NCBI GenBank assembly: GCA_963767165.1
Contig: CAVYCV010000003.1
Span: 986,509-1,050,508, forward strand
Length of the DNA stretch: 64,000 nucleotides
Source: an uncultured Chloroflexia bacterium
Lineage (GTDB): Bacteria > Chloroflexota > Limnocylindria > Limnocylindrales > CSP1-4
Direction of reading: 5' to 3'
Part shown: piece after piece, positions 34,819 through 61,522 of the stretch
How the letters are laid out: every line of letters begins with the position of its first letter
Numbering within the stretch: position 1 is the stretch's first letter
Notes under the pieces: generated by a model
What the model was told of the DNA's origin: nothing
Database searches by the model: none
The model's input: only the letters and a program-made list of their open reading frames with translations
Made by a program: the position numbers and the translations under genes

Positions 34819-34974
34819 GCCCTCGTAAGGTAGGTGCTTGTGGCGCGCCAGCGAGATTGAGGGCGCTGGGGTCTTCGCGACGGGCCGCCCGCCCGATGGA
34901 CGGAGCGCTGCCAAACGCGAGTCTGCAGCCATCGAACCGACGAGAGGACCGTCGGTCGACGAAGGAGCAGACCG

Positions 34975-36500: not shown

Positions 36501-36510
36501 GTCGCCACGG

Positions 36511-37490: not shown

Positions 37491-38110
37491 CGTCGCGCGA
37501 CCCGCCCGAGCCGCCGCGACGACCGCAACGACCTGGCGGGCGCGGGCTGTCACGCCCGCGGGATCCGCGTCGCCGACGAGCCAGCTGCCCAGCCCGACGG
37601 CGACCGCGCCGGCCGCGATGAACGAGCCGGCCGTCTCGGCGGTCACCCCGCCGGTCGGCACGACCGGGATGTCGGGGAACGGCCCGGCGAGTTCGCGGAT
37701 GAAGCTCGGTCCGAGCGACGATGCCGGGAAGAGCTTCACGGCCGCGGCACCCGCCCGCCACGCGGCGAGGACCTCGGTCGGGGTCGCGGCGCCCGGGAGG
37801 GTGGGGATCCCGCGCTCGGCGGCCCACGCGACAAGCTCGGCGTCGGTGTGCGGCATGACCAGGAACGTGGCTCCCGCGTCGACCGCGTTCCGGGCGGCCG
37901 AGATCGAGAGCACCGTGCCGGCCCCGATCGCGAGGCCCGCGCTCCGTGACCCGCCGGCGACCGCCGCGATGGCGCGGTAGGCGCGCACGACCGGCTCGTT
38001 GAGCGTGATCTCGAAGGCCCGGACGCCGCCTTCGGCCAGGGCTGACGCCACGTCGGGCGCGTGGGCCGGGTCGAGGCGCCGGGCGATGGCGACGACCCCG
38101 CCCGCCATCA
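37488..38110 (-). CDS. eda: KDPG/KDPGal aldolase (Eda family)
   Basis: 'GGVVAIARRLDP', 'GVRAFEITLNEP', 'IGAGTVLS', 'GATFLVMPH' and 'VKLFPAS' are typical class I KDPG aldolase motifs. Its stop overlaps the kinase start, consistent with an operon. Confidence 0.75.
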
Positions 38111-38532
38111 GGCCGGCCGGGATCGCCGGTCGCGATGTCGAAACGGTCACGCGGTCCGATCCTCCCTCGTGGTGTCGCTGGTCCGCGGACAGCGTAGCGC
38201 CGACCGGGCTGCCCCACGTGACCTCCGGCGAGCACCGTCGGGACCATCGGATTCGGTCGCCTGGGCGCCTCGCGGGCGAAGATGCAGGCATGGATCGAGA
38301 GCCCGCCATCGAACCGACGAGCGACGAGAGTCGCGAGCGCCTGCTGGCGACGCTGCTGCCCGTGCTCGTCGCGTACGAGGCCAGATACGACCTTCCGTCC
38401 GCCAGCGTGCCGGCCGAGCTCCGGGCCGGCCGCCTGCGCGAGACCGAGGACGTCCGCGACTGGCTCGAGATCTGGCAGACGTGCCGCGCCCTCGTCCGAG
38501 GGTCGACGACGCACGGCTGACCGGCCCGCGGC

Positions 38533-38745
38533 TCAGCCGCGCAGGAACGCCTTGAGCGCTCGGGTGACCGGGCGGATGAGGATCAGCCCCACGACCACGG
38601 CGGCGACCCCGACCAGTCCGTGGGGCATCCCGTTGATCGTCTCGAAGTTGCCGACCCCCTGACCGATCGTGGCCACGTCGATCGGCCCCTCATCTGCGGT
38701 CGGTGGCGGCTCTGTCCGGGGTGGGACCCGCTTCTGTCGTGCCAT
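38533..38745 (-). CDS. hypothetical small membrane protein (70 aa)
   Basis: Single hydrophobic helix 'GLVGVAAVVVGLILI'. No homology recognised. Confidence 0.3.
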   Translation of the reverse strand: MARQKRVPPRTEPPPTADEGPIDVATIGQGVGNFETINGMPHGLVGVAAVVVGLILIRPVTRALKAFLRG

Positions 38746-42968: not shown

Positions 42969-44583
42969 CTACGACCCGCGCGTCACCCGCACGTCGTCGA
43001 TCTCGGCCTCGACCAGGTTGGCCACCCCGCCATCGGTCGCGACGAACCGGATCCGCACGGTCTGGCCCGCGAACGCATCCAGCCCGATCGACGCGGTCCG
43101 CCAGGCCCCATCGACATCCGCCGCGCTCCCGAGCCGCGTCCACACGACCGTCTGCACGCCGCCGACCTCCACGATCGCCCGCAGCGAATCGGCGGACGAC
43201 GACTTCGCATCGTGCGCGAACACGTACCGGAAGGTCAGCCGCTGGCCGAGGGTCGCCGGGAGAACGATCGCAGGCGACCGCAGCGTCGTGACCCCGTCGA
43301 GGTCGCCACTCGTCGCCTTCGCGCCCGCCTTCGCACCCGTCACGAACGCCTTCGAACCCGATGTCGTCGTGCCGCGCTGCTTCGGGCCGGACCGGGACGT
43401 CGGCTCCGGGTTGGTCCGGCTGAAGTGCGCGGCCGCCGGCGCGGTGTCCGTCCCGTCCGGGTCGCGCGACCACCCACGTGCGACCTCGAGATCGTCATCG
43501 AACGCGCCGCATCGTGCCGCCCGGATGGTCGCGCCCAGCGCCCCCAGCGGACACCACGCCCGCTCCAGGAGATACAGCACGGTCCCCTTGTTCCGTCCCG
43601 TCTCGCTCGCGATCTTCGAGGGCTTCGGGTAGGCCGTCACCGACATCTCGATCGTGTACGCGAAGATCCGGTACGTCCCGTACTCGAAGTCGCGCGAGGT
43701 GCCCGAGCTGATGTACAGGTCGCTCGCCTGCTCGGGCTTGTAGCCGCTGAACGAGGCCATCTTTCGACCGATCCGGGCGAGCGCCGCGCGATCGTCGGTG
43801 GTCATGTCGCTCGGCACATTGGTCTTCGTGTAGCCGTACGGCCACATCACGAGCCGCCCGGTCTCGTGGAAGCTGATGCCCATCCGGATCTGCTGGCGGC
43901 CACCGATGACCCGGCTCGCGAGGAAGTCGCGGAACGCCCGGGCCTCGGGAGTCGAGAACGCCTTGGTGCCGCGATAGGTGATCGCCCGCGGGTTCGAGCT
44001 GGTCCGCCCGCCACCGCCCCAGCGGTAGCCGAAGTTCCGGTTCAGGTCCGTGCCTTTCGCGGTCGTGCCCGGGTTCGGCTGGCGGTTCTTGCGCCAGTTG
44101 TGGAACTTGCCACCCGCGATGTCGTGCGCCACGCCGTCGGGGTTGATCATGAAGACGATCCAGACCTCGCGCGTGTCGACGATGTTCGTGATCCGCGGAT
44201 CGACTCCGTAGCCGTCGGCCAGCCAATGCAGGATCTTGAGCGTCATCTCGACGCCCATGTGCTCGTCGGCGTGGATCCCACCGTCGAAGAGCACCTCGGG
44301 CTCGTCCTCGTCGACGCCGACGTTGTCCGAGATCTTGGCGGCCCACAGCTGTCGTCCGAGGTAGCTCTCGCCGATCGAGAACCGCTCGACGATCCCGGGG
44401 TGGGCGGTCTGGACCGCGGCAACGTCCGCCCCGACCTCGGCGTACGTGTGATAGGCCTCGTAGCCGGCCGGGAATTCGGCGGCGGCCAGTGCCGTCCCCG
44501 GCGCGAGGAGAGTGAGGATCAGCAGGCCGAGGGCCAGCGACGGAGGCGCGACCTTGGGCAGACAGCCGGAAGCCATGGGTTTC
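42969..44583 (-). CDS. secreted M14 family zinc carboxypeptidase (carboxypeptidase T-like) with C-terminal beta-sandwich domain
   Basis: Signal peptide present. Zn-ligand motifs 'HADEHMG' and 'NRNF', plus 'FHETG' (third His), are intact. The ORF formally extends to 44672. Confidence 0.85.
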
Positions 44584-44665
44584 ATGGTGACCGCTGGAGT
44601 CCCATGGCGCCATCCCGCCCTTCGGCCCATGCACACGGGCCGGTCGTCCCGGTAGCATCCTTGCC

Positions 44666-45491
44666 ATGCCACCCGATATCGAATCCGTCCTGTCCGTCAT
44701 CGACGCCTTCGGGGCCGAGCACGCGGCCGCCGCCCTCGTCGGTCCCGACGGGGTCATCGCGACCCACGGCGAGCCGGGCCACCGCTACGACTGGGCCTCG
44801 GTGACGAAGCCGTTCACCGCGATGACCGTGCTGATCGCGGCCGAGCGCGGCCTGCTCGACCTCGACGAGCCGGCCGGTCCGCCGGACTCGACCGTCCGGC
44901 ACCTCCTGTCGCACGCGTCCGGGCTGCCGTTCGAAGGCGAGGCGCTCCTCGGCGCCCCCGGGCGCAAGCGCATCTACTCGAACCCCGGCTTCGACCTGCT
45001 GGGCGACCTCGTGGCGTCGCGCTCGCGCAAGAGCTTCGAGTCGGCGCTCGTCACCTGGATCCTGCGGCCGCTCGAGATGGACCGGACGTTCCTGGAGGGT
45101 CGGCCCTCCGAAGGGCTGGCCGGCCCGATCCTCGACCTCGCCGCGTTCGCCCGGGAGCTGCTGCAGTCCGACGCTGCTCTCACCGGCCGGCGCCGCCGCG
45201 ATGCGCGAGGTGGCGTTCCCGGGCATCTCGGGCGTGGTCCCCGGGGTCGGCCGGTTCGACCCATGCGACTGGGGCCTCGGTGTCGAGATCCATAACGGCA
45301 AGCGGCTGCACTGGATGGGCGCGAACAACAGCCCCGCCACGTTCGGGCACTTCGGCGGCGCGGGCACGTTCCTCTGGGTCGATCCGGCCGTGGACCGCGC
45401 CCTGGTCGTCCTGACCGACCGCGGTTTCGGCGCCTGGGCCCTCGCGGCGTGGCCTGCCTTCTCCGACGCGGTGCTGACGACCCTCGTCTAA
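44666..45491 (+). CDS. serine hydrolase, beta-lactamase-related family, one frameshift near 45190
   Basis: 'WASVTKPF' (S-x-x-K active site) is in frame 44666... The C-terminal region ('FGHFGGAGTFLWVDP') is in frame 45201..45491. Confidence 0.7.
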
Positions 45492-48314: not shown

Positions 48315-48603
48315 GGCGCGCACAGGCCAGGGACGGCAACGATCCCCGGCACGAAAGGGCGTTGCGGCCTTCGCGCCGAGGATCTGGTGGTTACCGTCGC
48401 CCGTGGGGTCCCAGCGGTCAATGGGCCGAAGGTCGGCATTCGGGCCAGTACGCAGCCGGGCGCCCGCACAGCCGCCGATGCTCCCCATCGAATTCCGGTG
48501 CGTCCGCGCAGCGTGGTCCGGTGCGGGTCATTGCGTGCCCCACCGGCGGCGCGTACCGTCAGGAGCGCCGTCGCACACCCAGCGCCGACGTAGACGTCGC
48601 ACC

Positions 48604-50514
48604 ATGCCGTTCTTCGCCGATCGGCTCGAGGAGTCCCACCCCGTGACCACCCACCCGCGCCGGCTCACCGCCTTCCTCCTTGCCCTTGCGTTGGGTCTGG
48701 TCGCCACCCTCCCGGTCGCCGCTGCGGCTCCGCGGGTCCGCGCGGCCGATGCCGCCGCGCCCGGTGGGCGCTTCATCGTGGCGTGGCGTGGCGTGGCCCC
48801 GGACCGCGTGTCGATCTCAGGCGTCAGGCGGACCGACTCCGCGTCCGCCGGCCAGCGCAGCATCGTCGTCGCGAAGAAGGGTGAGGCGGGCAAGGTCGGC
48901 GCGGCCCTTCGCGCAGACCCGCGGGTCCTCTTCGTCGTGCCCGACGCGGTCGTCAAGGCGTCCGCCTGGCCCGCCGATGGCGCCCCGTCAGATCCCCTGT
49001 ACGCAGACCAGGAGGACCTCGAGCAGGTTCGGGTCCCGGAAGTCTGGCCGACGACCATCGGCGACCCGGGCGTCGTCGTCGCCGTGCTCGACTCGGGCGT
49101 GGACCTGGCCCATCCGGATCTCGCGGGCGTGAACGTCGTCGCGCCGCGGAACGAGATGTGGAACAACACCGACGTCACCGACGACAACGGCCACGGCACG
49201 CACGTTGCCGGCACGATCGTCGCGCAGACCGACAACGCGACGGGCATCGCGGGCATCGCCCCCGGCGCCTCGCTGATGCCGGTCAAGGTGCTCGACGAGT
49301 CCGGCATGGGCTTCTTCTCGGACATCCTCGATGGCGTGGACTGGGCTCGCACGCACGGCGCCGACATCATCAACCTCTCGCTCGGCGGCATCCTCGAGCC
49401 GGCCCAGGTGGCCTTGATCCAGCCCACGTTCACCGCGGCGCGAGCCGCCGGGATCCTAGTCGTGGCCGCCTCGGGCAACAGCGGGTCGCCGATCATGGAA
49501 TACCCGGCCGGCCTGCACGGCGTCGTGTCCGTGGCCGCCGTCGACGCGACCGACATCCAGGCCGACTTCTCGACCTTCAACCGCGGCGTCGACATCGCGG
49601 CGCCCGGCGTGGACATCCTCTCGACCACCGCGGGCGAATACGAGGAGGAGAGCGGCACGAGCATGGCCTCGCCGCACGTCGCGGGCATCGCAGCCCTGAT
49701 CTGGTCGGCGCGACCGGGCCTGGGCGTCACCGAGCTCGAAGCGGTCCTTCGGGCGAGCGCCGTGGACCTCGGGGACCCCGGGCGCGACAACGTCTACGGC
49801 TCGGGTCGCGTGGATGCCGAGGCGGCCCTCGCAGAGGCTGTCCCGAGCCCGCTGCCCGACCTCGAGCCTGCGCCAGGCTTCACCGATCCCCTGACGATCA
49901 CGTTCAGCGCGCCGGCGAGTTCAAGGACGCAGACCTCGAGGACGGTCAATGTGGCGTTCACGACCAGCCATGCCGTGATCGACGGGATCGTCCTGCGTCT
50001 GTCATGGCGGCTCGACAACGGCCACTGCCCGAATCCCGAGTTCGAGCCGTACGACGACGTCGTCCTGCTTGACTTCACGAGTCCCATCCACGAGACGGGT
50101 CTTCGGGCCGGTTTCTGCTACCGCTGGGACGCCCTCGCGATCGACGAGGAGGCCCAGCTCGCAGAGACCCTCAGCCAGCGGGTCTCGATCGTCGACCACA
50201 TCCGCCCGGCCATCAAGGCGCGGAGCCCGAGGCCGGGCGCGACAGGCGTCTCGACGCATGTCTCGGTCAAGGTCGTCTTCTCCGAGTCGGTCAGGGGTGT
50301 ATCGGGATCGACGCTTCGGCTCAAGAACCTGACCACCGGTCTCTGGGTGCGGGCGAAGGTCACGTACAACGCCTCGAAGCGGACGGCCACGATCGACCCC
50401 ACCAAGTCGATGTTCCACGGTCGCCGCTATGCCGTCGTCGTGGTCCGCGGCATCCGGGACCCGTCGGGCAACCGACTAAGCCCGACGACCTGGTCGTTCC
50501 GAACCAGCCGCTGA
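48604..50514 (+). CDS. secreted S8 family subtilisin-like serine peptidase with C-terminal Ig-like (SbsA-type) domains
   Basis: Start 'MPFFADRL...' with signal peptide. Catalytic triad motifs 'VAVLDSGVD', 'HGTHVAGTI' and 'GTSMASPHVAG' are present. The ORF formally opens at 48403. Confidence 0.85.
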   Translation: MPFFADRLEESHPVTTHPRRLTAFLLALALGLVATLPVAAAAPRVRAADAAAPGGRFIVAWRGVAPDRVSISGVRRTDSASAGQRSIVVAKKGEAGKVGAALRADPRVLFVVPDAVVKASAWPADGAPSDPLYADQEDLEQVRVPEVWPTTIGDPGVVVAVLDSGVDLAHPDLAGVNVVAPRNEMWNNTDVTDDNGHGTHVAGTIVAQTDNATGIAGIAPGASLMPVKVLDESGMGFFSDILDGVDWARTHGADIINLSLGGILEPAQVALIQPTFTAARAAGILVVAASGNSGSPIMEYPAGLHGVVSVAAVDATDIQADFSTFNRGVDIAAPGVDILSTTAGEYEEESGTSMASPHVAGIAALIWSARPGLGVTELEAVLRASAVDLGDPGRDNVYGSGRVDAEAALAEAVPSPLPDLEPAPGFTDPLTITFSAPASSRTQTSRTVNVAFTTSHAVIDGIVLRLSWRLDNGHCPNPEFEPYDDVVLLDFTSPIHETGLRAGFCYRWDALAIDEEAQLAETLSQRVSIVDHIRPAIKARSPRPGATGVSTHVSVKVVFSESVRGVSGSTLRLKNLTTGLWVRAKVTYNASKRTATIDPTKSMFHGRRYAVVVVRGIRDPSGNRLSPTTWSFRTSR

Positions 50515-50538: not shown

Positions 50539-51891
50539 TCAGGCCGGGTTCTCGACCGCCGCATCCTGACCGCGCCCGGCGCCCGTCGGCGCGGGATGGC
50601 GGCCGGCACGAAGGGCCTCCTGCGACAGGTCGAACGCGCCACGCAGGTCGCCCTGCTCGGCCTTGATCTCGGCCCATTCGCCAAGCACGGCCTGGAGCTG
50701 ACCCCGACGGCCCTGCGATCGCGCGACCCCGGCGGTCTCCTCGAGGATCGCCGACGCCTCGTCGAGGTCGCCCTGGGCGCGCCGCGCCTGCGCGAACGTC
50801 AGTGACGCACTGATCGCGGCCTTGCGGTTGCCGCTCTGCTCGGCCAGTCGGCGCGCCTCGAGCGCCCGGGCGGCGGCCGCGTCGCCCGCACCGCGTGCGA
50901 GGTCCACGCGGGCTTCGGTGTCGATGACGTGGGCGAGGGAGCGGTCGCTCCCGAGCCGTTCGAACCCGACGCGCGCGGCCGCGACGTGCTCTGCAGCCCG
51001 ATCGACCTGACCGAGGGCGAGGAACACCAGCGCAAGCTCGTTCTCGATCGAGGCGACCTCGCGTTCGGCATCGGCCGCGCGGAAATGGGTCAGGCTCTGC
51101 GAGCCGGTCGTCAGGGCGGCCTCGAGGTCGCCGAGCTCGTGGTAGCTCATCGCCAGCGAGAACAGGAACGTGGCGCGACGGCGGTCGTCGAGCAGGCCGA
51201 CCATCGCCCGGGCCTGCTCGAGGTAGCCGAGCGCGCGTTCCGGCTGGTCGTCGCGCGAATCGATGGTCGCGAGCGCGATGAGGATCCGCAGGCGAAGCTC
51301 GGAATCGACGTTCAGGCCCTGGGCGATCTCGTCGAGCACGCGGAGGAGGAGCTCGCGGGCGCCGTCGCCCAGTTCGAGCTCGTGCAGCGCGCTCGCCTCC
51401 CAGTACGTCGCCCACGCGGCGTCGGCGTGGCGGCCCTGCCGGCGGAACAGCTCGGCTGCCTCGGAGGCGACGCGGATGGCCTCGGCGCCCTGCTCGAGAC
51501 GGCAATAGCCCTCGGCGAGCGCCCGCAGGAGCTCCGGCCGGACGGAGTCGGACGGGCCGTCGTCCAGCAAGGCCGTGAAGGCGTCGACCGCCCGCTGCCA
51601 CTCGCCACTGGCGAGGTGCACATCGGCCTCGAGCCTCGTCCAGGCCGGCTCGTCTGCCGCGAGCAGCCTCGTCACCGGGACCCCCAGTCGACCGGCGAGG
51701 AAGTTGAGCGCGGCCAGCGATGGCTTCGCGAGGCCGTTCTCGAGGGCGCTCACGTACGCCTTCGTGTACCGGCCCTCGGCCAGCTGCGATTGGGTCATGT
51801 TCGAGCGAAGGCGCTCAGACCGGATGACCGCCCCGATTCGGCGGGCGAGTGGACGATCCGCGGCGGCGTGGGAGCGGGTGACTCGTGGCAT
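50539..51891 (-). CDS. XRE-family HTH transcriptional regulator with C-terminal TPR-like repeat domain
   Basis: 450-aa intact ORF. The N-terminal HTH is 'IRSERLRSNMTQSQLAEGRYTKAYVSALENGLAKPSLAALNFLAGRLGV'. The remainder consists of Ala/Leu-rich helical repeats typical of TPR. Confidence 0.75.
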   Translation of the reverse strand: MPRVTRSHAAADRPLARRIGAVIRSERLRSNMTQSQLAEGRYTKAYVSALENGLAKPSLAALNFLAGRLGVPVTRLLAADEPAWTRLEADVHLASGEWQRAVDAFTALLDDGPSDSVRPELLRALAEGYCRLEQGAEAIRVASEAAELFRRQGRHADAAWATYWEASALHELELGDGARELLLRVLDEIAQGLNVDSELRLRILIALATIDSRDDQPERALGYLEQARAMVGLLDDRRRATFLFSLAMSYHELGDLEAALTTGSQSLTHFRAADAEREVASIENELALVFLALGQVDRAAEHVAAARVGFERLGSDRSLAHVIDTEARVDLARGAGDAAAARALEARRLAEQSGNRKAAISASLTFAQARRAQGDLDEASAILEETAGVARSQGRRGQLQAVLGEWAEIKAEQGDLRGAFDLSQEALRAGRHPAPTGAGRGQDAAVENPA

Positions 51892-52170
51892 GTGCGTCAG
51901 TGTACTCCCCGGTCCAACACCGGTTGACAGCGAGCAGCAGCACCGCCGGCGAGGTCTGGAGGCGGTCCGCGATCAAGCCGAGGCTCGGCAGGGAGGGAAC
52001 TACCCGGCCGTGCTCGATGAGCGACACGAAGGACTTGCTCAGGGGGTCGGCCAGTTGGACCTGGCTCAATCCGAGCTCGATCCGGCGGCGGCGGATCTCG
52101 GCGCCGAGGAGGCACGCGAAGTCGGAATCCGGGCCGAAAGCGCGATGTTTAGCAATAGTTGACGACCGCA
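51815..52170 (-). CDS. small XRE-family HTH protein (118 aa)
   Basis: 'LLGAEIRRRRIELGLSQVQLADPLSKSFVSLIEHGRVVPSLPSLGLIADRL' is a Cro/C1-type HTH. Its 3' end overlaps the start of the TPR-XRE gene by ~75 nt. Confidence 0.45.
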
Positions 52171-52236
52171 TGACAGGGAGCCTAGCATGTCGGTGGGTGA
52201 AGCCAGCACGCGGCGTGCGACGGGAAGGAGTTCCCG

Positions 52237-52362
52237 ATGACCCGTTCACGAGCTGCTCGACTTCGCACGGTCGTCTTCGCCAGCGCGACGGCCCTGATCG
52301 CCCTGGCCGCGATGGCCTCCACCGTCTTTGCCGATAGCACGGGAGGTTGGTTTCCCAAGTAG
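52237..52362 (+). CDS. 41-codon ORF encoding a Sec-type signal peptide followed by a 9-residue C-terminal peptide (MTRSRAARLRTVVFASATALIALAAMASTVFA|DSTGGWFPK); candidate exported signalling pro-peptide
   Basis: ATG at 52237 is preceded by GGAAGGAG at optimal spacing. The product has n-h-c signal peptide architecture with an AxA-like site and ends in TAG at 52360. It is divergent from, and 67 bp away from, the XRE genes. It is below the 60-aa cutoff of the supplied ORF track. Confidence 0.35.
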   Translation: MTRSRAARLRTVVFASATALIALAAMASTVFADSTGGWFPK

Positions 52363-52461: not shown

Positions 52462-54162
52462 TCAACTGCCGCCGGAGAGGGCTCCAAGGCGCTCCGTGAG
52501 GCGCAGGTTCTCCCGATAGTCGATCGGGACCTCGACCAGCGCCGGGCCGGGATGTTCGATGGCCCGCATGAGCGTCGGGTAGAGCTCAGCCGCCGACGAA
52601 GGCCGGTACGCCGCCATCCCGAATGACTGCGCGTAGGCGATGAAGTCCGGGTTCGTGAACGCCACGCCGAACGGCCGCTCGAACTCGCTCTGCTGCTTCC
52701 AGTCGATCAGCCCGTAGCCGTCATCGCGCCACACGACCACCGTGATGTCGGCGCCGATCCGCCGGGCCGTCTCGAGCTCCTGGCTGTTCATCAGGAACCC
52801 GCCGTCCCCACACAATGCGATGGCATGCCGGTCCGGGTGGACGAGCTTGGCCGCGATCGCGCCGGGCAGCGAGATGCCCATCGCCGCGAACCCGTTCGAG
52901 ATGATGACCGTGTTGGGTTCGTACGCCTGGTAGAGGCGGGCCACCCAGATCTTGTGCGCACCGACGTCGCTCACGACGATGTCGGTCGGGCCGAGCGCTC
53001 GCCGGAGGTCAGCGATGGCCTTCTGGGGCTTGATCGGCCAGCCGTCATCCTGGTCGTAGGCACCCAGGTCGGCGAGCAGGGCGGTCCGCAGGTCCTGGTG
53101 CACGAGGGTCTCGCGCGTCGCATGGCGCTCGCTCGCGTTGCGACCCCCGATGCCCTGCGGCAGCAGGGCCGCGAGCAGTCGGTGGAGGGTCCCGTCGATG
53201 TCGCCGACGAGCTCGACCTCGGGCTGGTACGCGGCGTCAACATCGGCGGGTTGCGTGTCGATGTGGACGATCCGCTTGCGGCCGTCGGGGTTCCAGCGCG
53301 ACGGCGCGTATTCGACGAGGTCATATCCGACGCAGACGACGAGATCCGACCGATCGAACCCGGACAACACGTGGTCGCGGGCCTGCAGTCCGACCGCCAT
53401 CAGCGAGAGATGGCTCCGGTCGTCGATCGCGCCCTTGCCCATGAACGTGACCGCGACCGGCACGTGGAGGCCCTTCGCGAATGCCCGAAGCGCATCCGAC
53501 GCGCTCCGCCGGAGCACGCCGTTGCCGGCGAGGACGAGCGGTCTCGCCGAGCCCGCGATGAGCCCCGCGGCATGGGCGATCGCCTCATCCGTGGGCTCCG
53601 GCAGGTACGCGCGGGTCGGCATGATGGGTCGGAGGTCGTCGGGGATCGGCGTCGCGGCGAGGTTCTCCGGCAGCTCGATGTGCGTGGGACCGGGCTTCTC
53701 GAGCTGCGCCAGCCGGAACGCCTTGCGCGCGATCTCGGGCAGCGCCTCCACCTGCTCGACCCGTTGGTTCCACTTCGTGACGGGCTCGAGCATGCGGACG
53801 ATGTCGACGAACTGGTGGGCCTCGCGGTGGACCTTGTCGAGACCGGTCTGGCCGGTGATCGCGACCATCGGGGCGTGGTCGAGGAACGCGTCGGCGATGC
53901 CCGTCACGAGGTTCGACGCGCCTGGCCCGAGGGTCGCCATCGCGACGGCGGCGCGCCCGGTGAGCCGGCCGTACACGTCCGCCATGAATGCCGCGCCCTG
54001 CTCGTGGCGCGTGGTGATGTGGCGCACGACGTCCTGCCGGCTCAGGGCGTCGAGGATGTCGAGGGTCTCCTCGCCCGGGACGGAGAAGACATACGCGCAG
54101 CCCTCGGCGGCGAGCGACTCGACGAGCAGGGAGGCGGCGGTCCGGACCGGCGTGGTGCCCAT
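52462..54162 (-). CDS. thiamine pyrophosphate-dependent enzyme (acetolactate synthase large subunit / benzoylformate decarboxylase family)
   Basis: Start 'MGTTPVRTAAS'. TPP-binding motif 'GDGGFLMNSQELETA' and the N-terminal Pyr domain 'FSVPGEETLDILDAL' are present. The ORF formally opens at 54384. Confidence 0.8.
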   Translation of the reverse strand: MGTTPVRTAASLLVESLAAEGCAYVFSVPGEETLDILDALSRQDVVRHITTRHEQGAAFMADVYGRLTGRAAVAMATLGPGASNLVTGIADAFLDHAPMVAITGQTGLDKVHREAHQFVDIVRMLEPVTKWNQRVEQVEALPEIARKAFRLAQLEKPGPTHIELPENLAATPIPDDLRPIMPTRAYLPEPTDEAIAHAAGLIAGSARPLVLAGNGVLRRSASDALRAFAKGLHVPVAVTFMGKGAIDDRSHLSLMAVGLQARDHVLSGFDRSDLVVCVGYDLVEYAPSRWNPDGRKRIVHIDTQPADVDAAYQPEVELVGDIDGTLHRLLAALLPQGIGGRNASERHATRETLVHQDLRTALLADLGAYDQDDGWPIKPQKAIADLRRALGPTDIVVSDVGAHKIWVARLYQAYEPNTVIISNGFAAMGISLPGAIAAKLVHPDRHAIALCGDGGFLMNSQELETARRIGADITVVVWRDDGYGLIDWKQQSEFERPFGVAFTNPDFIAYAQSFGMAAYRPSSAAELYPTLMRAIEHPGPALVEVPIDYRENLRLTERLGALSGGS

Positions 54163-54181
54163 GGCTGGCGAGGCTAGCAGG

Positions 54182-55072
54182 TCAGGGGATCGCGACCGCG
54201 TTGCCTGAGACGCGGATGCCCCTCTCCCCGGCGACGATGGTGACGATGAGTCGGCTGGGTCGTCCCATCTCCACGCCCTGGGCGATCTCGAATGACCCAG
54301 GGGCGACGCTGTCGCCACGAGCCCGCAGGTACGCCCCGAGCGCCGCGGCCGCGGCGCCCGTTGCCGGATCCTCGACGACGCCACCCACCGGGAACGGATC
54401 GCGCGCCCGGAACCGATCAGGCGCCTCGCGCCACACGAGCTGGAGCGTCGTGAGGTCGTGCTCGAGCATGAGCGCCTTGAGCGTCTCGAACGGGTACTCC
54501 AGCCTGGCGAGGCGCTCGCGACGCCCGGCGGCGAGGATGAGGTGGCTCACCCCGGCGAACGCGACCGCCGGCGGCAGCTCGGGGTCGAGCTCGTCGGTCC
54601 GCCAGCCAAGGATGTCCAGCGCGCTCGCGAGGAGTGCAGGGGAGGGCTCGCGGACCCGGGGCGCGACCGATGTCAGCGTGGCCCGGATCAGCCCATCGGC
54701 GCCGGGCGTGACGCCGACCTCGACCGGCCCGCCGTTGGTCTCGAGCACGATCTCGCCGGGTCCGTCCTCGCCGGCGGGTCGTGCCATCCGCCCGAGCTCG
54801 GCGAGCGCGACGCCCGCGGCGATCGTGGCGTGGCCGCAGAACTGGACTTCGGCGAGCGGGCTGAAGTACCGGACCCGAAAGCGGCCGGCGCCACCCGATG
54901 GGTCGGGCGCGAGGAACGCCGTCTCCGAGTAGCCCACCTCTGCGGCGATCCGCTGCATCTGCGCGTCATCGGGCAGCGTCTCGCCGATCCAGACCCCGGC
55001 CGGATTGCCGCCGCCCGGGTCGGTCGTGAACGCGGCCAGGCGCATGAGCGTGCCGAGCGTCGGTTCGGACAT
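54182..55072 (-). CDS. PhzF family phenazine biosynthesis-like isomerase
   Basis: 296-aa intact ORF. The 'GGNPAGVW' start motif and 'FCGHATIAAGVAL' are characteristic of PhzF/DAP-epimerase-like proteins. Confidence 0.85.
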   Translation of the reverse strand: MSEPTLGTLMRLAAFTTDPGGGNPAGVWIGETLPDDAQMQRIAAEVGYSETAFLAPDPSGGAGRFRVRYFSPLAEVQFCGHATIAAGVALAELGRMARPAGEDGPGEIVLETNGGPVEVGVTPGADGLIRATLTSVAPRVREPSPALLASALDILGWRTDELDPELPPAVAFAGVSHLILAAGRRERLARLEYPFETLKALMLEHDLTTLQLVWREAPDRFRARDPFPVGGVVEDPATGAAAAALGAYLRARGDSVAPGSFEIAQGVEMGRPSRLIVTIVAGERGIRVSGNAVAIP

Positions 55073-55166
55073 CGATCGAGTATGCCGTGGCGACTGGTCC
55101 CGTGGCGAAGGGTCCGTTCGGCACGGGCTCGATATCGTTCCACGCCCTAGAGTTGCCGCCGGATGG

Positions 55167-55724
55167 ATGTCATCGGGACCGTCGAACTCTTCTACGCGAT
55201 GCTCGCCGATCGCGGCGAATATCTTCGTGATCGGCCTGCTGGGGTTGGCCCTGGCCAGCCGCGGCTCGCCGTCCGCGCAGGGCTGGCTGGCCGCCGCCCG
55301 GTCCGGCCTTGGCTCGAGCGCATTGGCTGGTGCATTCGTCGTGGCCGTGCTGGCGACCGCCGGCAGTCTCTACTTCTCGGAGATCGCCCATTTCGAGCCG
55401 TGCAAGTTGTGCTGGTACCAGCGCATCGCGATGTACCCGCTCGTCGTGATTCTGGGCATCGCGGCGTGGCGCAGCGACCCGGGCGTCCGGCGCTACGCCG
55501 CGCCGATCGCGGTGATCGGCGCCGTCATCTCCACATACCACTACCTGCTCGAGTGGTTCCCGGCACTCGACTCCGGCGTCTGCTCAGCGACCACGCCATG
55601 CTCGGTCGTCTGGTTCCGTCAGCTCGGGTTCGTGAGCCTGCCGTACCTCGCGCTCTCGGCCTTCCTGCTCATCCTGTCGCTGCTCTGGCTCGCCAGAGTC
55701 CCGGACCCTGATCGAGGACCCTGA
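55167..55724 (+). CDS. DsbB-family (BdbC-like) disulfide bond formation protein B
   Basis: 'SLYFSEIAHFEPCKLCWYQRIAMYP' (CxxC in first periplasmic loop), a second Cys pair 'CSATTPC', and four TM helices. Confidence 0.7.
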   Translation: MSSGPSNSSTRCSPIAANIFVIGLLGLALASRGSPSAQGWLAAARSGLGSSALAGAFVVAVLATAGSLYFSEIAHFEPCKLCWYQRIAMYPLVVILGIAAWRSDPGVRRYAAPIAVIGAVISTYHYLLEWFPALDSGVCSATTPCSVVWFRQLGFVSLPYLALSAFLLILSLLWLARVPDPDRGP

Positions 55725-56392
55725 TGACCAAGACCAAGCCATCGCGCCGATCCGCGCCGCCGCCGCGCAAGGGTGCGTCGCCCTCGACGCTCATCCTCGG
55801 ACTGGCGGGGCTCGTCATCGCCGGAGCCGCCGTGGCGGCCATCGTGCTGACCCAGTCCGGGACCGCGGCCGTCGCGAGCGCGTCCCCGAGCGGGGTCGCG
55901 CCTTCGACGGCGGTGACCGGAAAGGCATTGCCGGCCTTCGATCCCGGCGTCGTCGATCGCGGCCGTCGGCCAGCCGGCGCCGCAGGTCGATGGTGCGTCG
56001 TTCGACGGCACGCCGGTCAGCATCAAGGCCGACGGCCGGCCGAAGCTCGTCCTGTTCATCGCCCACTGGTGCCCGCACTGCCAGCGCGAGGTGCCGGTCG
56101 TGCAGAGCTGGCTCGACGCCGGTGGGTTGCCCGACGGCGTGGACCTCATCTCGGTCGCTCCGCGAACGACCCGACGCTGCCGAACTATCCGCCGGACGCG
56201 TGGCTGGCGCGCGAACGCTGGTCATCGCCGGTCATCGTCGATGGCGATCGAGCGATCGGGACCGACTACGGCCTGACCGCCTTCCCGTACTGGGTCGCGG
56301 TGGGTGCCGACGGGAACGTGGTCGGTCGCCTGAGCGGTGAGCTGACCGCCGCCCAGCTCGACGCGCTGGTGGCCTCGATCAGCGGGAGCTGA
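55724..56392 (+). pseudogene. TlpA/ResA-like thioredoxin-fold thiol:disulfide oxidoreductase, two frameshifts
   Basis: The signal/TM anchor and 'KALPAFD' are in frame 55724... The redox motif 'FIAHWCPHCQREVPVVQSWL' is in frame 56091... The C-terminus 'GLTAFPYWVAVGADGNVVGRLSGELTAAQL' is back in frame 55724... The start overlaps the DsbB stop. Confidence 0.65.
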
Positions 56393-56401
56393 CCCTGGAG
56401 C

Positions 56402-57486: not shown

Positions 57487-57747
57487 GTGTCGCCTCGGGC
57501 CGGCGCTGCGCGTGCCCGGCTGTGCGCGGATCCGCGCGCGCACCGACACAAACCTACCGCCGGGTCGGGGACCTTCGCAATCGATGAAAACCCTGCATAT
57601 CCGGTCCGCACCATGCGTGCGGCGCGGCGGTCGCGGGATCGGTCGCGGGCCGATCCGACCGGGCCTGGGAGTCGAAAGGGTCCTTGTCCGGAGTGGCGGT
57701 AGACTGCCCCCACGCCCGCCACCCATCGGCGCATCCGTGGCAGGAGA

Positions 57748-58604
57748 CATGGCTGAGGAGATCCCGGCTCGAGGACCAGGCTCGCCGCCGTCAGGCCGTC
57801 TGCGGACGCGTCTCGGACGTTCGGTGCCGTTCGTCTCGGGTGCCGCGGTCGCGCTGGTGGCCGTGTTCCTCTACGGCGTCCTCGTTCCCGGGTACGCCGC
57901 CATTGACCCAGCGTGACGTCAACGACACCATCGCGAGCGCCCTGGCGTCCGTCACGCCTCCGCCGGCGTTCTCGGAGCTGGTCTACCAGGCCGTGCAGCC
58001 ATCGCTGGTGCTGATCCAGACGAACCAGCCCCACGGGCAGGCAGCACAGGACGCGACACCGGAGGAGGACGGCGGCCTCGGCAGCGGCGTCGTCGTCAGC
58101 CTCGACGGCGACATCCTGACCAGCCTCCACGTGATCGCCGACGCGACCGAGATCAAGCTGACGTTCGCCGACGGCACCACGTCGGGTGCCGACGTCGTGG
58201 CCCGCCAGCCCGAGCACGACATCGCTGTGCTGCGGGCGACCCGGCCCCCGGCCAACCTCGTGCCGGCGGTCCTGGGCAATCCCGGCGCCGTCCGGCAGGG
58301 GAGCGAGGCCTACGCGATGGGCAGTCCCTTCGGGCTCTACGGCTCGATGAGCGCCGGCGTCATCTCCGGGCTCGACCGATCGTTCCAGATGCCTGACAGC
58401 GACCGGGTGCTCACGGGGCTCTTCCAGATCGACGCCGCCGTCAATCCAGGGAACTCCGGCGGCGCGCTGACCGACCGCGACGGGCATGTGATCGGGATCG
58501 TCACGGCCCTCATCAACCCCACCGAGGACGACGTCTTCATCGGCATCGGCCTCGCGGTCCCGATCGATGTCGCCGGCGGCGCCGCCGGCCTGCCCCCGTA
58601 CTAG
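57748..58604 (+). CDS. trypsin-like serine protease (S1C/HtrA-like, no PDZ recognised), one frameshift near 57900
   Basis: The N-terminal TM anchor ('VALVAVFLYGVLVPGYA') is in frame 57485... The protease domain (frame 57684..58604) has the 'GNSGGAL' serine motif and the His region 'LTSLHVIADA'. SD CAGGAGAC lies before the ATG at 57748. Confidence 0.7.
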
Positions 58605-58617
58605 AGGAGAGTCGCGA

Positions 58618-59628
58618 GTGGAACAGCCAGACGTCGCCGACCGCGCCGCTCCGATGGAGCGACTCCTGTACGAGGTCAAGAAGGTCATCGTCGGCCAGGA
58701 CCACCTCCTCGAGCGATTGATCGTCGCGCTCCTGGCGCGTGGCCACATCCTCGTCGAAGGCGTGCCGGGCCTGGCCAAGACCATGGCCATCAAGACCCTG
58801 GCCGAGGCGATCGGCGGGGAGTTCAAGCGGATCCAGTTCACGCCGGACCTCGTCCCCGCGGACTTGATCGGCACCCGCATCTACAACCAGAAGAGCGGCG
58901 AGTTCGGGACATCGCTCGGCCCGGTCTTCACCAACCTGCTGCTCGCGGACGAGATCAACCGCGCCCCGGCCAAGGTCCAGAGCGCCCTGCTCGAGGTCAT
59001 GCAGGAACGCCAGGTGACGATCGCGCGCGAGACCTACAAGGTCCCCAACCCGTTCCTCGTGCTCGCCACCCAGAACCCGATCGAGACCGAGGGGACCTAC
59101 GCTTTGCCCGAGGCGCAGATCGACCGGTTCATGATGAAGGTCCTCGTCGGCTACCCGAGCCCGTCGGAGGAGTTCGTGATCGTCGAGCGGATGACCGGCC
59201 TGCTGCCGGTCGTCGGGCAGGTGCTCACGACCGACGGGCTGCTCGCGATGCAGCAGGGCGCGGACCGGGTCTATGCCGATCCGGCGCTGTTCGAATACGC
59301 CGTGCGTCTGGCGACCGCGACCCGCGCCCCCGAGGCCCACGGCCTGGCGGAGCTGAAGCGCTACATCACCTACGGCGCCAGCCCGCGCGCCTCGATCAAC
59401 CTGATCCTCACCGCGCGGGCGCTCGCGTTCGTCCGCGGGCGCGACTACGTCCTGCCCGAGGACGTGACCGACATGGCGCTCGACGTCCTGCGCCATCGCA
59501 TCGTGCTCTCGTTCGAGGCCCTCTCGGACGATGTCACCAGCGACGCCATCCTCAAGACCCTTCTCGACCGGATCCCCGTCCCGGTCGTGCCACTGCGAGA
59601 GCATGGCAACGTCCACGTCAGCGCCTGA
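58618..59628 (+). CDS. MoxR family AAA+ ATPase
   Basis: Walker A 'GVPGLAKT' and Walker B 'LLADEINRA'. The MoxR-specific 'VLATQNPIE' is present. GTG start is preceded by AGGAGA. Confidence 0.85.
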   Translation: MEQPDVADRAAPMERLLYEVKKVIVGQDHLLERLIVALLARGHILVEGVPGLAKTMAIKTLAEAIGGEFKRIQFTPDLVPADLIGTRIYNQKSGEFGTSLGPVFTNLLLADEINRAPAKVQSALLEVMQERQVTIARETYKVPNPFLVLATQNPIETEGTYALPEAQIDRFMMKVLVGYPSPSEEFVIVERMTGLLPVVGQVLTTDGLLAMQQGADRVYADPALFEYAVRLATATRAPEAHGLAELKRYITYGASPRASINLILTARALAFVRGRDYVLPEDVTDMALDVLRHRIVLSFEALSDDVTSDAILKTLLDRIPVPVVPLREHGNVHVSA

Positions 59629-60502
59629 GCGCATCCTCCAGCGCCTCGACTGGCAGGTCATCCGCCGGCTCGATGGCCTGCTTCAGGGCGACTATCGGAG
59701 CCTCTTCCACGGCCAGGGCGTGGACTTCGCCGACCTGCGCGAGTACCAGTACGGCGACGACGTGCGCTACATCGACTGGAGCGTCACCGCGCGGATGGAC
59801 ACGCCGTACGTCCGCGAGTACGTGGAGGACCGCGAGATCACCGCGTGGTTCCTGCTCGACCTGAGCCCCTCGGTCGACTTCGGGACCGCGGAGTCCGAGC
59901 GCCTGAAGCGTGGCGTCCTGGTCGACTTCGTCACGACGCTCGCGCGCCTGCTCACCCGGCACGGCAACCGCGTCGGGGCCGTGTTCTATGGCGGCGAGGT
60001 CGGCCGGACGATCCCGGCGCGCGGTGGGCGGATCCAGGTCCTGCGACTCCTCAACGACCTGCTCGGCCAACCCCGCCTGGCGACGGCGCCGTTCACCGAC
60101 CTGACGCCCCTGCTGGAGGCGGCACAGCACTCGATGAAGGGCCGCTCGCTCGTGTTCGTCATCTCGGACTTCATCAGTGCGCCCGGTTGGGAGAAGCCCC
60201 TGAACCTGCTGACGCAGCGACATGAGGTCATGGCGGTCCGCCTCTTCGACCGGCGCGAGGTCGAGCTCCCGGACGTGGGCCCGCTCATCATGGAGGACTC
60301 GGAGACCGGCGAACAGCTCTACGTCGACACGCACGACAAGGGCTTCCGACGCAGGTTCCGGGAGGCCGCAGACCGGCGGGAGGCCGACCTGACCGAGGCC
60401 TTCCGGCGCTCCGGGGTCGACGCCGTGTCGCTCTCCACCGACGACGATCTCGTCACGGCCATCGTCCGCATGGCGAAGCTCCGCCAGAAGCGTCGGAACT
60501 GA
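59606..60502 (+). CDS. DUF58 domain protein
   Basis: 'GDYRSLFHGQGVDFADLREYQYGDDVRYIDW' is the DUF58 signature. It overlaps the MoxR 3' end. Confidence 0.8.
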   Translation, partial: ATSTSAPERILQRLDWQVIRRLDGLLQGDYRSLFHGQGVDFADLREYQYGDDVRYIDWSVTARMDTPYVREYVEDREITAWFLLDLSPSVDFGTAESERLKRGVLVDFVTTLARLLTRHGNRVGAVFYGGEVGRTIPARGGRIQVLRLLNDLLGQPRLATAPFTDLTPLLEAAQHSMKGRSLVFVISDFISAPGWEKPLNLLTQRHEVMAVRLFDRREVELPDVGPLIMEDSETGEQLYVDTHDKGFRRRFREAADRREADLTEAFRRSGVDAVSLSTDDDLVTAIVRMAKLRQKRRN

Positions 60503-60505
60503 CGC

Positions 60506-61522
60506 GTGACGTTCATCTGGCCGGCGATGCTGCTGCTCATCCTCACGATCCCCCTCGGGGCAGCCGGCTATCTCGCGCTCGAGCGCCGGCGCCGGCGCCG
60601 GGTGGCGGCCTACGGGATCACGGCCGGTCCCGGGTCGGCCGGCGTCCCGAAGCGGCAGGCTGGTCTGCGGCGCCGGATCGCGTCCGCGTTCATCCTCGTG
60701 GGCCTGGCCATGCTCGTGGTCGCGATGGCCCGTCCCCAGAGCGTCGTCAGCGTGCCGCGGGTCGAGGGCACCGTGATCCTCGCGTTCGACGTGTCCGGCA
60801 GCATGGCCGCCGACGACCTCGAGCCGACCCGGATGGAGGCGGCCAAGGCCGCGGCTCGCGCGTTCGTCGAGCGCCAGCCGACATCGATCCTGATCGGGGT
60901 GGTCGCATTCAGCGACAGCGGCTTCTCGATCCAGGTGCCGACCAGCGATCCGACCCCGGTGCTCGCCGCGATCGACCGGCTCGCGCCGGAGCGTGGCACG
61001 TCCCTCGGCCGCGGCATCCTGACCTCGCTCACGACCATCGCCGCCGCCGAGGCCGATCCGGCGGAGGGCTACTACACCAACCGCTCGCCCGACCCGACGC
61101 CCGACCCGACACCCGTGCCGGCCGGGACTCACGCCCCGGCCGCGATCGTGCTGCTGACCGACGGCGAGAACAACCAGTCCCCGGATCCGCTGGAGGCGGC
61201 CGGCGTCGCAGCCGATCGTGGCGTGCGGATCTTCACCGTCGGCATCGGCAGCGCCGCGGGGGCGACGCTCGAGGTCGAGGGCTTCATGGTCCACAGCCAG
61301 CTCGACGAGCCCTTGCTCCGGCAGATCTCGGATTCGACCGGTGGCGCCTACTACGCCGCCACCGACCCCGACGAGCTCGCCGCGATCTACGCGGGCATCG
61401 ATACCCGTCTCACCGTCAAGCCGGAGGCGATGGAGGTCACCTCGCTGTTCGCGGGCGCCGGGGCGTTGATCCTGCTGATCGGTGCCGTCGCCTCGCTGAC
61501 CTGGCTGGGCCGGCTGCCATGA
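60506..61522 (+). CDS. VWA domain-containing membrane protein (BatA-like)
   Basis: Two N-terminal TM helices. The VWA MIDAS motif 'ILAFDVSGSM' and 'LLTDGENN' are present, with a C-terminal TM helix. Confidence 0.8.
   Translation: MTFIWPAMLLLILTIPLGAAGYLALERRRRRRVAAYGITAGPGSAGVPKRQAGLRRRIASAFILVGLAMLVVAMARPQSVVSVPRVEGTVILAFDVSGSMAADDLEPTRMEAAKAAARAFVERQPTSILIGVVAFSDSGFSIQVPTSDPTPVLAAIDRLAPERGTSLGRGILTSLTTIAAAEADPAEGYYTNRSPDPTPDPTPVPAGTHAPAAIVLLTDGENNQSPDPLEAAGVAADRGVRIFTVGIGSAAGATLEVEGFMVHSQLDEPLLRQISDSTGGAYYAATDPDELAAIYAGIDTRLTVKPEAMEVTSLFAGAGALILLIGAVASLTWLGRLP

Follow-up and report, generated by a model that had tools for sequence, protein, structure and literature searches.

The question raised by this locus is whether a 41-codon open reading frame (the mini-ORF), divergent from a regulator with a helix-turn-helix (HTH) and TPR-like repeats, encodes the exported peptide that this regulator senses, in the manner of RRNPP quorum-sensing systems. 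The locus lies in a window (the whole stretch of DNA that was analysed) of 64,000 nucleotides, which comes from a metagenome assembly in which some genes are frameshifted, as for example the regulator at L025. An earlier note, made from the letters alone, had proposed a signalling module made up of the regulator, a small XRE protein and the mini-ORF, and all three genes were found where it placed them. It had also taken the host for a high-GC actinobacterium; the relatives of the locus instead all belong to the Chloroflexota, class Limnocylindria, an abundant soil and freshwater class of which nearly all members are uncultured.

The mini-ORF and its conservation

The mini-ORF occupies positions 52237..52362 of the forward strand, and its product, MTRSRAARLRTVVFASATALIALAAMASTVFADSTGGWFPK, comprises a predicted signal peptide (residues 1 - 32) followed by the tail DSTGGWFPK (residues 33 - 41). 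A Shine-Dalgarno sequence, GGAAGGAG (52223..52230, forward strand), as read from the sequence, ends 6 nt before the ATG. Synteny, proposed earlier as the check on the pairing, showed the mini-ORF to be kept alongside regulator homologues as distant as 47% identity: of 82 related loci (regulator identity 47 - 100%), 74 have an equivalent ORF that passed the filter, and the other eight are mostly explained by tblastn matches or cut contigs. The mini-ORF is always divergent from and upstream of the regulator, is 37 - 41 codons long in most loci, and in nearly all of them begins with ATG behind an AAGGAG/GGAGG-type ribosome-binding site at the same spacing.

Several features point to translation. 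Among the more divergent pairs of close relatives pN/pS is 0.26 - 0.51, and at the best-conserved positions, Gly(-3), Pro(+1) and Ala(-7), all four synonymous codons occur. Relative to the motif, the stop codon keeps its position in more than 70 species, and with a convergent gene beginning some 100 nt further on a longer protein would have no room; together these exclude the possibility, raised earlier as a caveat, that a secreted-protein gene has been cut short here to leave only its 5' end. No Rfam family matched the region, and a search of 5.8 billion predicted proteins returned a single counterpart. On this comparative evidence the mini-ORF is a genuine gene under amino acid-level selection, and its long-term linkage is, as judged from the related loci, exclusive to the TPR-HTH regulator.

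Anatomy of the predicted pre-peptide

The product opens with the n-region MTRSRAARLR, followed by an h-region and the c-region STVFA. The shape of a signal peptide with a short tail, first read from this one sequence, is conserved position by position among orthologues; a cleavage-type site is likewise present, reading V-F-A in the window and not the AxA described before. In the residue-position table, compiled from 71 loci, V or A at -3 and A or G at -1 are found in 70/71, with small polar residues at -5 and -4, and the basic n-region carries a near-invariant Arg (65/70). The best-conserved segment of the mini-protein follows the cleavage-type motif, with Gly in 70/71 and Pro in 71/71, and the shared plan is a basic n-region, a hydrophobic core, (V/A)-x-(A/G) and x-[STG]-G-G-G-x-[FWY]-P-[KRH]. 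Two other export classes were considered and rejected: a Tat signal (RR or KR occurs in some orthologues and the motif is not conserved) and a lipoprotein (Cys follows the cleavage-type motif in two loci only). A RiPP precursor or double-glycine leader seems unlikely, as the neighbourhood has neither a C39/PCAT gene nor a modifying enzyme and the leader has the character of a hydrophobic signal peptide.

The regulator and the small XRE protein

The regulator (50539..51891, reverse strand; 450 aa in the window, about 428 - 455 aa in most intact orthologues) appears to be a cytoplasmic, receptor-like protein with an N-terminal XRE HTH followed by some nine TPR-like helix pairs (nine helix pairs in the AF2 model). 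Residues 23 - 74 match HTH_3 (Pfam, E 1.3e-7), and TPR_12, scoring above the Pfam cut-off (E 4e-17), confirms the TPR content; the RNPP-type receptor architecture (XRE HTH plus TPR) ascribed to this protein is supported. Membership of a MalT-like or NsdA-like family is not supported, as all three profiles fall short of their curated cut-offs (TPR_MalT, 34.8 bits versus 45; NsdA_fam_reg, 35.6 versus 75; MalT equivalog, 19 versus 537). The best PDB sequence match is the HTH of PlcR (E 1.2e-7), and outside the HTH the regulator shows no sequence likeness to RRNPP receptors. In structural comparison Rap with bound pheromone and AimR rank among the top matches; MalT domain III and TPR proteins of generic type resemble the regulator at least as well as Rap, NprR, AimR and PlcR do, with APPBP2, MalT domain III and LGN scoring equal to or above the RRNPP receptors. 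These generic structural matches, together with the HTH-limited sequence similarity, count against an RRNPP assignment.

The small XRE-family HTH protein (51815..52171, reverse strand; 118 aa from the ATG; Pfam HTH_31/HTH_3) is found as an exact 118-aa sequence in the protein collection. The 3' part of its gene overlaps the regulator start by 77 nt, which corresponds to its last 25 or so codons, out of frame, and its conserved core stops near an 'EYTDAHA' motif. All loci whose regulator exceeds about 54% identity have the gene, as do some of those below; the whole 'GGGDFPR' clade lacks it. Of the three-part module envisaged in the earlier note, the syntenic link between peptide ORF and regulator holds, whereas the small XRE gene is clade-limited and stands outside the core. 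In the window it separates the peptide gene from the receptor gene, which are not direct neighbours, and this too counts against an RRNPP reading.

A conserved element at the divergent promoter

A consensus scan placed a promoter-like site for the mini-ORF, TTGACG-18 nt-TAGCAT, at 52159..52188 on the forward strand (one site, versus a mean of 0.0 over 50 shuffles), and TTGAC and TA.C.T are kept in an alignment of 38 intergenic regions. The -35 of this promoter is spanned by an ultra-conserved DNA element, TGTTTAGCAATAGTTGAC (52146..52163, forward strand; one site in the window, 0 expected), that sits within codons 3 - 9 of the small XRE gene. Its exact 16-mer core occurs once in each of 21 loci whose regulators are 54 - 93% identical. 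A metagenome scan with the 16-mer gave 120 matches, of which 109 are chance occurrences in AT-rich DNA; the same module is present at 9 of the 11 high-GC matches. The remaining two (L110 and L164) are near-identical loci with a TetR-family regulator and an acyl-CoA-synthetase-like gene, where the 16-mer is probably there by chance. Dyad symmetry of the element is weak (8/17, palindrome check by eye). The promoter region containing TGTTTAGCAATAGTTGAC appears specific to the peptide-regulator module and is a candidate operator.

Neighbouring genes

An S8 subtilase gene adjoins the regulator in the window. It was considered as a dedicated processing protease and rejected as a core part of the module, being syntenic only in eight related loci (regulator identity at least 79%). 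Proteases and MoxR/VWA genes are also found in the window. Among the neighbours examined, none apart from the mini-ORF is kept throughout the regulator family, and no transporter, sensor or modifying enzyme is co-conserved; by eye the clade-B neighbours look like housekeeping genes (e.g., a LigD-like ligase and a NifU-like protein). A scan of ten nearby ORFs in the window and an inspection of conserved neighbour families in clade B turned up no oligopeptide permease, an absence that counts against an RRNPP reading.

A possible peptide signalling module

The reading preferred here, at a probability of roughly 0.5, is an RRNPP-type peptide signalling module of two genes (three in this window) that is vertically conserved in Limnocylindria. 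The mini-ORF, expressed from a promoter of its own, would yield a 41-aa pre-peptide, which Sec would export and signal peptidase I would cut after V-F-A, freeing DSTGGWFPK; tails longer than the consensus, such as ...DFPRLR, may be trimmed further. The released peptide would build up outside the cell, be re-imported, and bind in the concave TPR groove of the cytoplasmic HTH regulator, altering its DNA binding. One likely site of action for the regulator is the mini-ORF promoter, at the conserved element spanning its -35, so that the loop would be autoregulatory. In the clade with the small XRE gene, its product, which is a paralogue of the regulator HTH, might modulate the same operator. Export, cleavage site, import, receptor binding and the sign of regulation are all inferred.

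Support for such a module comes from the co-conservation, the signs of translation, the signal peptide, the conserved element, and a weak covariation between peptide and regulator. In the clade whose peptides have Asp before the aromatic residue, the regulators carry clade-specific Arg at positions 281, 352 and 394, the first of these one helical turn from the invariant N284, and have lost an acidic residue at position 232. This charge covariation, which represents a single evolutionary event, weakly suggests that the two proteins are partners. The locus can also be compared with the five-criterion RRNPP signature of Bernard et al. (2023; PMC10075063). Against a pro-peptide range of 10 - 100 aa, the mini-ORF encodes 41 aa (37 - 41 in most loci); the 450-aa regulator falls within the 250 - 500 aa of receptors and contains TPRs, as the signature asks; the signal-sequence anatomy, assessed heuristically, is conserved, with V/A at -3 and A/G at -1 in all but one of the 71 orthologues; and where the signature asks for direct neighbours at a distance of -60 to 400 bp, the divergent genes adjoin each other, mostly 145 - 207 bp apart, in the clade without the small XRE gene, whereas in the window that gene lies between them.

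Comparison with known systems

The RRNPP literature cited here (PMC10075063, PMC9765709, PMC12700828) places these systems, PlcR-PapR, Rap-Phr and AimR-AimP among them, solely in Bacillota and the mobile elements of that phylum. Full-text literature searches combining RRNPP or quorum sensing with Chloroflexi, Chloroflexota or Limnocylindria returned nothing relevant. Known RRNPP systems evolve fast, are often carried on mobile elements and show strain-specific pherotypes, and PlcR-PapR, Rap-Phr and AimR-AimP are, besides, often multi-copy. The peptide scaffold here, unlike these, is conserved class-wide, chromosomal and apparently single-copy, which counts against an RRNPP reading.

PlcR-PapR, Rap-Phr and AimR-AimP combine a cytoplasmic TPR receptor with an adjoining Sec-exported pro-peptide of about 40 - 48 aa, with the signal in its C-terminal 5 - 8 residues, and the present pair, with its predicted export signal, resembles them. 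Rap has no HTH, unlike the regulator here. Phr peptides are matured by subtilisin-type proteases, and an S8 subtilase likewise lies beside the present regulator, although it keeps its place only in close relatives. The NprR-NprX system of the Bacillus cereus group differs in that NprR has no significant TPR-domain sequence similarity to the regulator, in that nprX lies downstream of and co-directional with nprR while the peptide gene here is divergent, and in that the present system belongs to another phylum, with a peptide scaffold conserved across a class.

In gene arrangement there is a likeness to Rgg-SHP of streptococci and PrgX-PrgQ of enterococcal pCF10, where a short peptide gene is likewise divergent from an XRE-HTH repeat-domain receptor. 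Their promoters overlap or face each other and the receptor operator lies at the peptide promoter, recalling the conserved 52146-52188 region, which overlaps the small XRE gene start. No Rgg or PrgX homology of the regulator was detected. SHP and PrgQ have no classical Sec signal peptide, are exported by PptAB and yield hydrophobic active peptides (PMC10075063), in contrast to the Sec-type signal, signal peptidase I motif and Gly-rich, aromatic-Pro-basic tail seen here. Finally, MalT domain III and the TPR_MalT region of actinobacterial LAL, AfsR and NsdA-type regulators occur in proteins of other composition, the present regulator being without a STAND ATPase, LuxR or SARP domain; to our knowledge, LAL, AfsR and NsdA-type regulators are not paired with an exported mini-peptide.

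Alternative explanations

The alternative that survives best, and which is nevertheless rather unlikely, is that the regulator responds to a protein partner or, like MalT domain III, to a small molecule, and simply controls the divergent mini-gene, with the secreted peptide acting elsewhere, for example on a distant membrane sensor or as an antimicrobial, surface or metal-binding factor. An unmodified 9-residue peptide, however, has few plausible stand-alone functions, and among the neighbouring genes examined no further sensor, transporter or modifying enzyme has been co-conserved. TPR grooves typically bind peptides, the peptide-bound forms of Rap and NprR are equally good structural matches, and the charges of the peptide and of TPR residues covary.

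Distinctly less probable is an uncleaved small membrane protein, whose hydrophobic segment is a signal anchor (N-in, C-out) and whose last nine residues form an external tail. Such a protein might, for example, act together with a membrane protease or transporter, modulate one, or report on envelope state. The roughly 22 residues between the near-invariant Arg and the tail would suit it, as would the tightly fixed length (37 - 41 aa in most loci), and Ala at -24 and -20 in 61/71 loci gives an A-xxx-A, helix-packing-type spacing; these conserved small residues in the h-region hint at a sequence-specific membrane role and count against signalling. The h-region proper, however, is just 17 or so residues, rich in Ala, Ser, Thr and Gly, conservation peaks in the extracytoplasmic tail, and the near-universal V/A at -3 and A/G at -1 after small polar residues form a signal peptidase I pattern that an anchor does not need. 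That there is no functional peptide gene at all (a chance ORF, a truncated secreted protein, or a cis-regulatory DNA or RNA element) might be argued from its absence from nearly all gene calls and from an assembly with frameshifted genes, and is already refuted by the comparative data, namely the stop position and ribosome-binding site, the pN/pS below 1 and full synonymous codon usage at the top-conserved Gly, Pro and Ala, the convergent gene, and the missing Rfam match.

Implications

In summary, the RRNPP-type module stands as the preferred reading. The broader proposal, that Limnocylindria have a class-wide, vertically inherited peptide signalling system in which a Sec-exported, Gly-rich nonapeptide ending in aromatic-Pro-Lys/Arg is sensed by an HTH-TPR receptor, is a little more tentative, and such a system may have arisen independently from MalT-like TPR sensors. 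If true, this would be the first RRNPP-like system outside the Bacillota, and genetically encoded peptide quorum sensing would be no speciality of that phylum; a receptor and pro-peptide pair in another phylum would widen the known range of RRNPP signalling logic. It would also show that a whole gene family has been overlooked, since gene callers discard ORFs as short as about 40 codons. For organisms not yet grown, the pair would provide a testable ligand and receptor (a synthetic 9-mer and a soluble 450-aa protein), and would open a way into the physiology or social behaviour of a lineage that is abundant in the environment.

Gene organization and host lineage

The ORF listing and sequence place the 450-aa regulator, an HTH_XRE and TPR protein, at 50539-51891 on the minus strand, overlapped by 77 nt at its start by the 118-aa small XRE ORF (51815-52171, minus strand), whose start at the ATG at 52171 is backed by homologues. 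Divergent from both is the 41-codon mini-ORF (52237-52362, plus strand; product MTRSRAARLRTVVFASATALIALAAMASTVFADSTGGWFPK), and GGAAGGAG, read from the sequence on the same strand, ends 6 nt before its ATG. The regulator has a convergent neighbour, the gene for an S8 subtilase that also carries a Big_5 domain (48403-50514, plus strand), and so does the mini-ORF, in its case a TPP enzyme gene (52462-54384, minus strand); G+C of the window is 71%. In Pfam, the regulator matches HTH_3 at residues 23-74 and TPR_12 (E 4e-17), with TPR_MalT below threshold, the small XRE matches HTH_31/HTH_3, and the mini-ORF has no match. NCBIfam gave only sub-threshold matches, e.g., NsdA_fam_reg and MalT, and Rfam no family over the module region.

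The TPP-dependent (acetolactate-synthase-like) gene sits between PhzF and the mini-ORF and is found only in the window and L002-L005, being missing from the related loci L001, L006 and L008; its listed ORF has a long N-terminal extension overlapping PhzF that is probably spurious. Likely secreted proteases (M14 carboxypeptidase, the S8 subtilase, trypsin-like peptidase) are clustered round the module at 42969-44696 (minus), 48403-50514, 57588-58604 and 58492-61522 (all plus), close to a MoxR-DUF58-VWA set, with synteny in close relatives only; trimming of a basic peptide C-terminus by the carboxypeptidase or a trypsin-like enzyme is speculation. Frameshifts occur in some relatives' genes (as in L025, whose regulator is garbled over its C-terminal half), and parts of the window, e.g., 34818-38533 and 54546-56393, lack a clean ORF in GC3-based gene calls, consistent with an earlier remark on indels in this metagenome assembly.

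The host, previously taken for a high-GC actinobacterium, belongs elsewhere. Among 8000 candidates scored, 979 regulator homologues were found at E<=1e-5, many about 60% identical, and their named sources are Limnocylindrales or Chloroflexota. When genomes were scanned, with each species represented by one, 424 stretches proved to encode a relative; the 80 best are from metagenome-assembled genomes titled Limnocylindria (a class of Chloroflexota), Limnocylindrales, Chloroflexi or 'uncultured Chloroflexia', besides a few with placeholder names or names that probably reflect mis-binning. A few homologues are labelled 'quorum sensing regulator NprR' by JGI automatic annotation.

Conservation of the mini-ORF and its partners

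The 41-codon ORF with Shine-Dalgarno and ATG described in the earlier note is present and conserved beside the regulator: a divergent upstream ORF of its shape passes the filter in 74 of 82 loci, and of the eight that fail, two are contigs cut near the regulator and four have tblastn matches to the mini-ORF. Most are 37-41 codons long, and with start codons assigned almost all have an ATG with an AAGGAG/GGAGG-type site ahead. In L001, where the regulator is 79% identical, the regulator, small XRE and mini-ORF (MSRPRFARFRTVVVASASALVALASIVTAVLADSSGGPFPK) are all there, with the stop at the same position as in the window. Selection acts on the mini-ORF protein, since pN/pS is 0.26-0.51 (more divergent pairs among close relatives) and the loci between them use all four synonymous codons at each of Gly(-3), Pro(+1) and Ala(-7). 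These data and the conserved stop refute the concern that the mini-ORF is the truncated 5' end of a secreted protein, and on comparative grounds non-gene explanations are excluded. A 5.8-billion-protein collection held one counterpart (P0122, 41 aa, 83% identical); the gene is essentially unannotated.

Every locus whose regulator is more than about 54% identical has the small XRE, as do some of the less similar ones. It is missing from the clade with peptides ending GGGDFPR(LR), where the mini-ORF adjoins the regulator directly and divergently across a gap of mostly 145-207 bp. The three-gene module proposed earlier is thus kept as to regulator and mini-ORF, but not as to the small XRE. The S8 protease was demoted as a module part, since it, like PhzF and other window neighbours, is syntenic only in the eight related loci of at least 79% regulator identity; conserved neighbours in the GGGDFPR clade are, by eye, unrelated housekeeping genes (e.g., a LigD-like ligase and a NifU-like protein). 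The sole lasting partnership is that of mini-ORF and regulator. The conserved core of the small XRE has STIAKH at its N-terminus and includes the HTH and an EYTxxHA motif. The tail of the small XRE probably has no function, because its out-of-frame overlap with the regulator start varies by genus from -11 to +308 nt (window 51815-51891, L009, L018, L021, L044); 118 aa probably overstates the functional protein in the window, the conserved part stopping at EYTxxHA.

Promoter and candidate operator

A consensus scan found one promoter-like site pointing at the mini-ORF, TTGACG-18-TAGCAT at 52159-52188 (shuffle mean 0.0). Its -35 is included in an 18-mer, TGTTTAGCAATAGTTGAC (52146-52163), that is almost invariant in the intergenic alignment of loci with the small XRE and is followed about 17 nt downstream by TA(G/C)CAT. 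Exact copies of the 16-nt core occur in 21 loci (at 5729-5744 in L001) with regulator identity of only 54-93%, and the 16-18-mer persists between species with proteins just about 55-60% identical. The element has one copy in the window versus 0 expected. It overlaps small XRE codons 3-9 (STIAKH), and that these end in A or T despite a genome GC3 of about 88% indicates constraint at the DNA level. The element may be an operator, but its palindrome is only weak. In JGI metagenomes, 9 of 11 high-GC-context matches to the 16-mer carry the module, with new mini-ORF variants; 109 low-GC matches were dismissed as chance. The 16-mer also occurs at 1620-1635 of L110 and in the near-identical L164, probably by chance given the database size. 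There, at 64% GC, it is flanked by a TetR-family regulator and an acyl-CoA-synthetase-like gene, which likewise begins MSTIAK.

The start of the small XRE-regulator transcript must lie within or beyond the mini-ORF 5' region, so that the two transcription units face each other, as do those of prgQ and prgX. Loci without the small XRE (L029, L039, L041, L058 and others) have a long leader from a TTGAC...GTAC promoter-like pair to the mini-ORF, with conserved blocks about 100 nt upstream of the ATG, e.g., GACCG.CGGGTCATTG and GACGGTG, that could be 5'-UTR structure or the regulator's own promoter/operator.

Peptide, receptor and the RRNPP comparison

Anchoring 71 mini-ORF sequences on their aromatic-Pro pair revealed Arg at -29 (65/70), bounding n-region and hydrophobic core; Ala at -24 and -20 (61/71 each), an A-xxx-A spacing inside the core; small polar c-region residues at -11 and -10; V/A at -9 and A/G at -7 (70/71 each), the signal peptidase -3 and -1 positions; and, from -6 to +2, the tail [D/G/V/A/S]-[S/T/G]-G-G-G-[P/D/W]-[F/W/Y]-P-[R/K/H], with Gly at -3 in 70/71 and Pro in 71/71. 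The pattern is that of the signal peptidase I -3/-1 rule, and the segment after it is the best conserved of the mini-protein. Some tails are extended by 2-4 residues, mainly basic. In L033 and L064, Cys directly follows the A-x-A-like site (VMA|C, VAA|C), a lipobox-like variant, and tails ending ...GGPW or ...PGPW without the aromatic-Pro-basic ending (L023, L054, L153) indicate some diversity in the C-terminal motif.

The AF2 model of the regulator (116-sequence alignment) is confident, with mean pLDDT 88.8; beyond an HTH and a linker, its 18 helices make up nine TPR-like pairs. Foldseek against the PDB ranked LGN/Pins first, with matches including the pheromone-bound Rap of phage phi3T (target TM about 0.65), PlcR-PapR and RapF. 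Structural matches to the model scored 26.7 for APPBP2 bound to a C-terminal degron, 25.8 for MalT domain III, 24.7 for LGN, 23.8 for Rap105 with peptide, 22.2 for AimR, 21.4 for Rap pLS20, 21.0 for NprR-NprX and 19.2 for PlcR. The predicted fold is a TPR superhelix of the peptide-binding type, and its nearest bacterial neighbours include RRNPP receptors. At the sequence level, a profile search of the PDB found PlcR via the HTH only (E 1.2e-7) and RapH at E 0.011; common descent with RRNPP receptors cannot be claimed.

Asp just precedes the aromatic residue (GGGDFPR) in 26 loci, and only 11 regulator columns separate these from their five nearest non-Asp relatives (65-74% identical). In three of these columns (13, 281 and 352 in window-equivalent numbering) Arg has been gained; residue 281 is in the sixth A-helix, a single turn away from invariant N284. 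Another column, 394, has Arg or Lys only in the Asp clade, which has also lost an acidic residue at 232. These changes would fit charge complementarity with the peptide Asp in the groove but, as a single evolutionary event, are weak evidence.

According to Bernard et al. 2023 (PMC10075063), the RRNPP signature comprises a small pro-peptide, Sec secretion, a 250-500-aa receptor, receptor TPRs and direct adjacency of the two genes, spaced by -60 to 400 bp. Pro-peptide size, receptor size and TPRs are all found in the mini-ORF/regulator pair, Sec secretion is suggested by the conserved anatomy, and adjacency holds for the clade that lacks the small XRE but is looser in the window. RRNPP has been treated as a family of Bacillota and their mobile elements (PMC10075063; Felipe-Ruiz et al. 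2022, PMC9765709; Moi et al. 2025, PMC12700828), and full-text literature searches for RRNPP or quorum sensing with Chloroflexi, Chloroflexota or Limnocylindria returned nothing relevant. The observation of the earlier note is thus borne out and much strengthened, and its peptide-signalling interpretation is supported in part: it retains its conserved pair, with the peptide as a candidate ligand, and loses its taxonomy and the small XRE as a core part.

The most parsimonious reading, with a probability of about one half, is an RRNPP-like loop in which the mini-protein would be exported by Sec and cut by SPase I after V-F-A, freeing a Gly-rich 9-mer that would be re-imported and bound in the regulator's TPR groove, altering regulator binding at the conserved promoter element. 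In the main rival reading, which is rather unlikely, the regulator would sense something else and merely control the mini-gene; that it fits MalT domain III closely, and that the peptide is, unusually, conserved across the class, speak for this. That the product stays uncleaved as a small membrane protein would suit the A-xxx-A within the hydrophobic segment, but not the conserved -3/-1 pattern, and is distinctly improbable. If the mini-ORF/regulator pairing is functional, it would bring a known kind of system to a new phylum in which none has been described, and would offer an immediately testable peptide-receptor pair.
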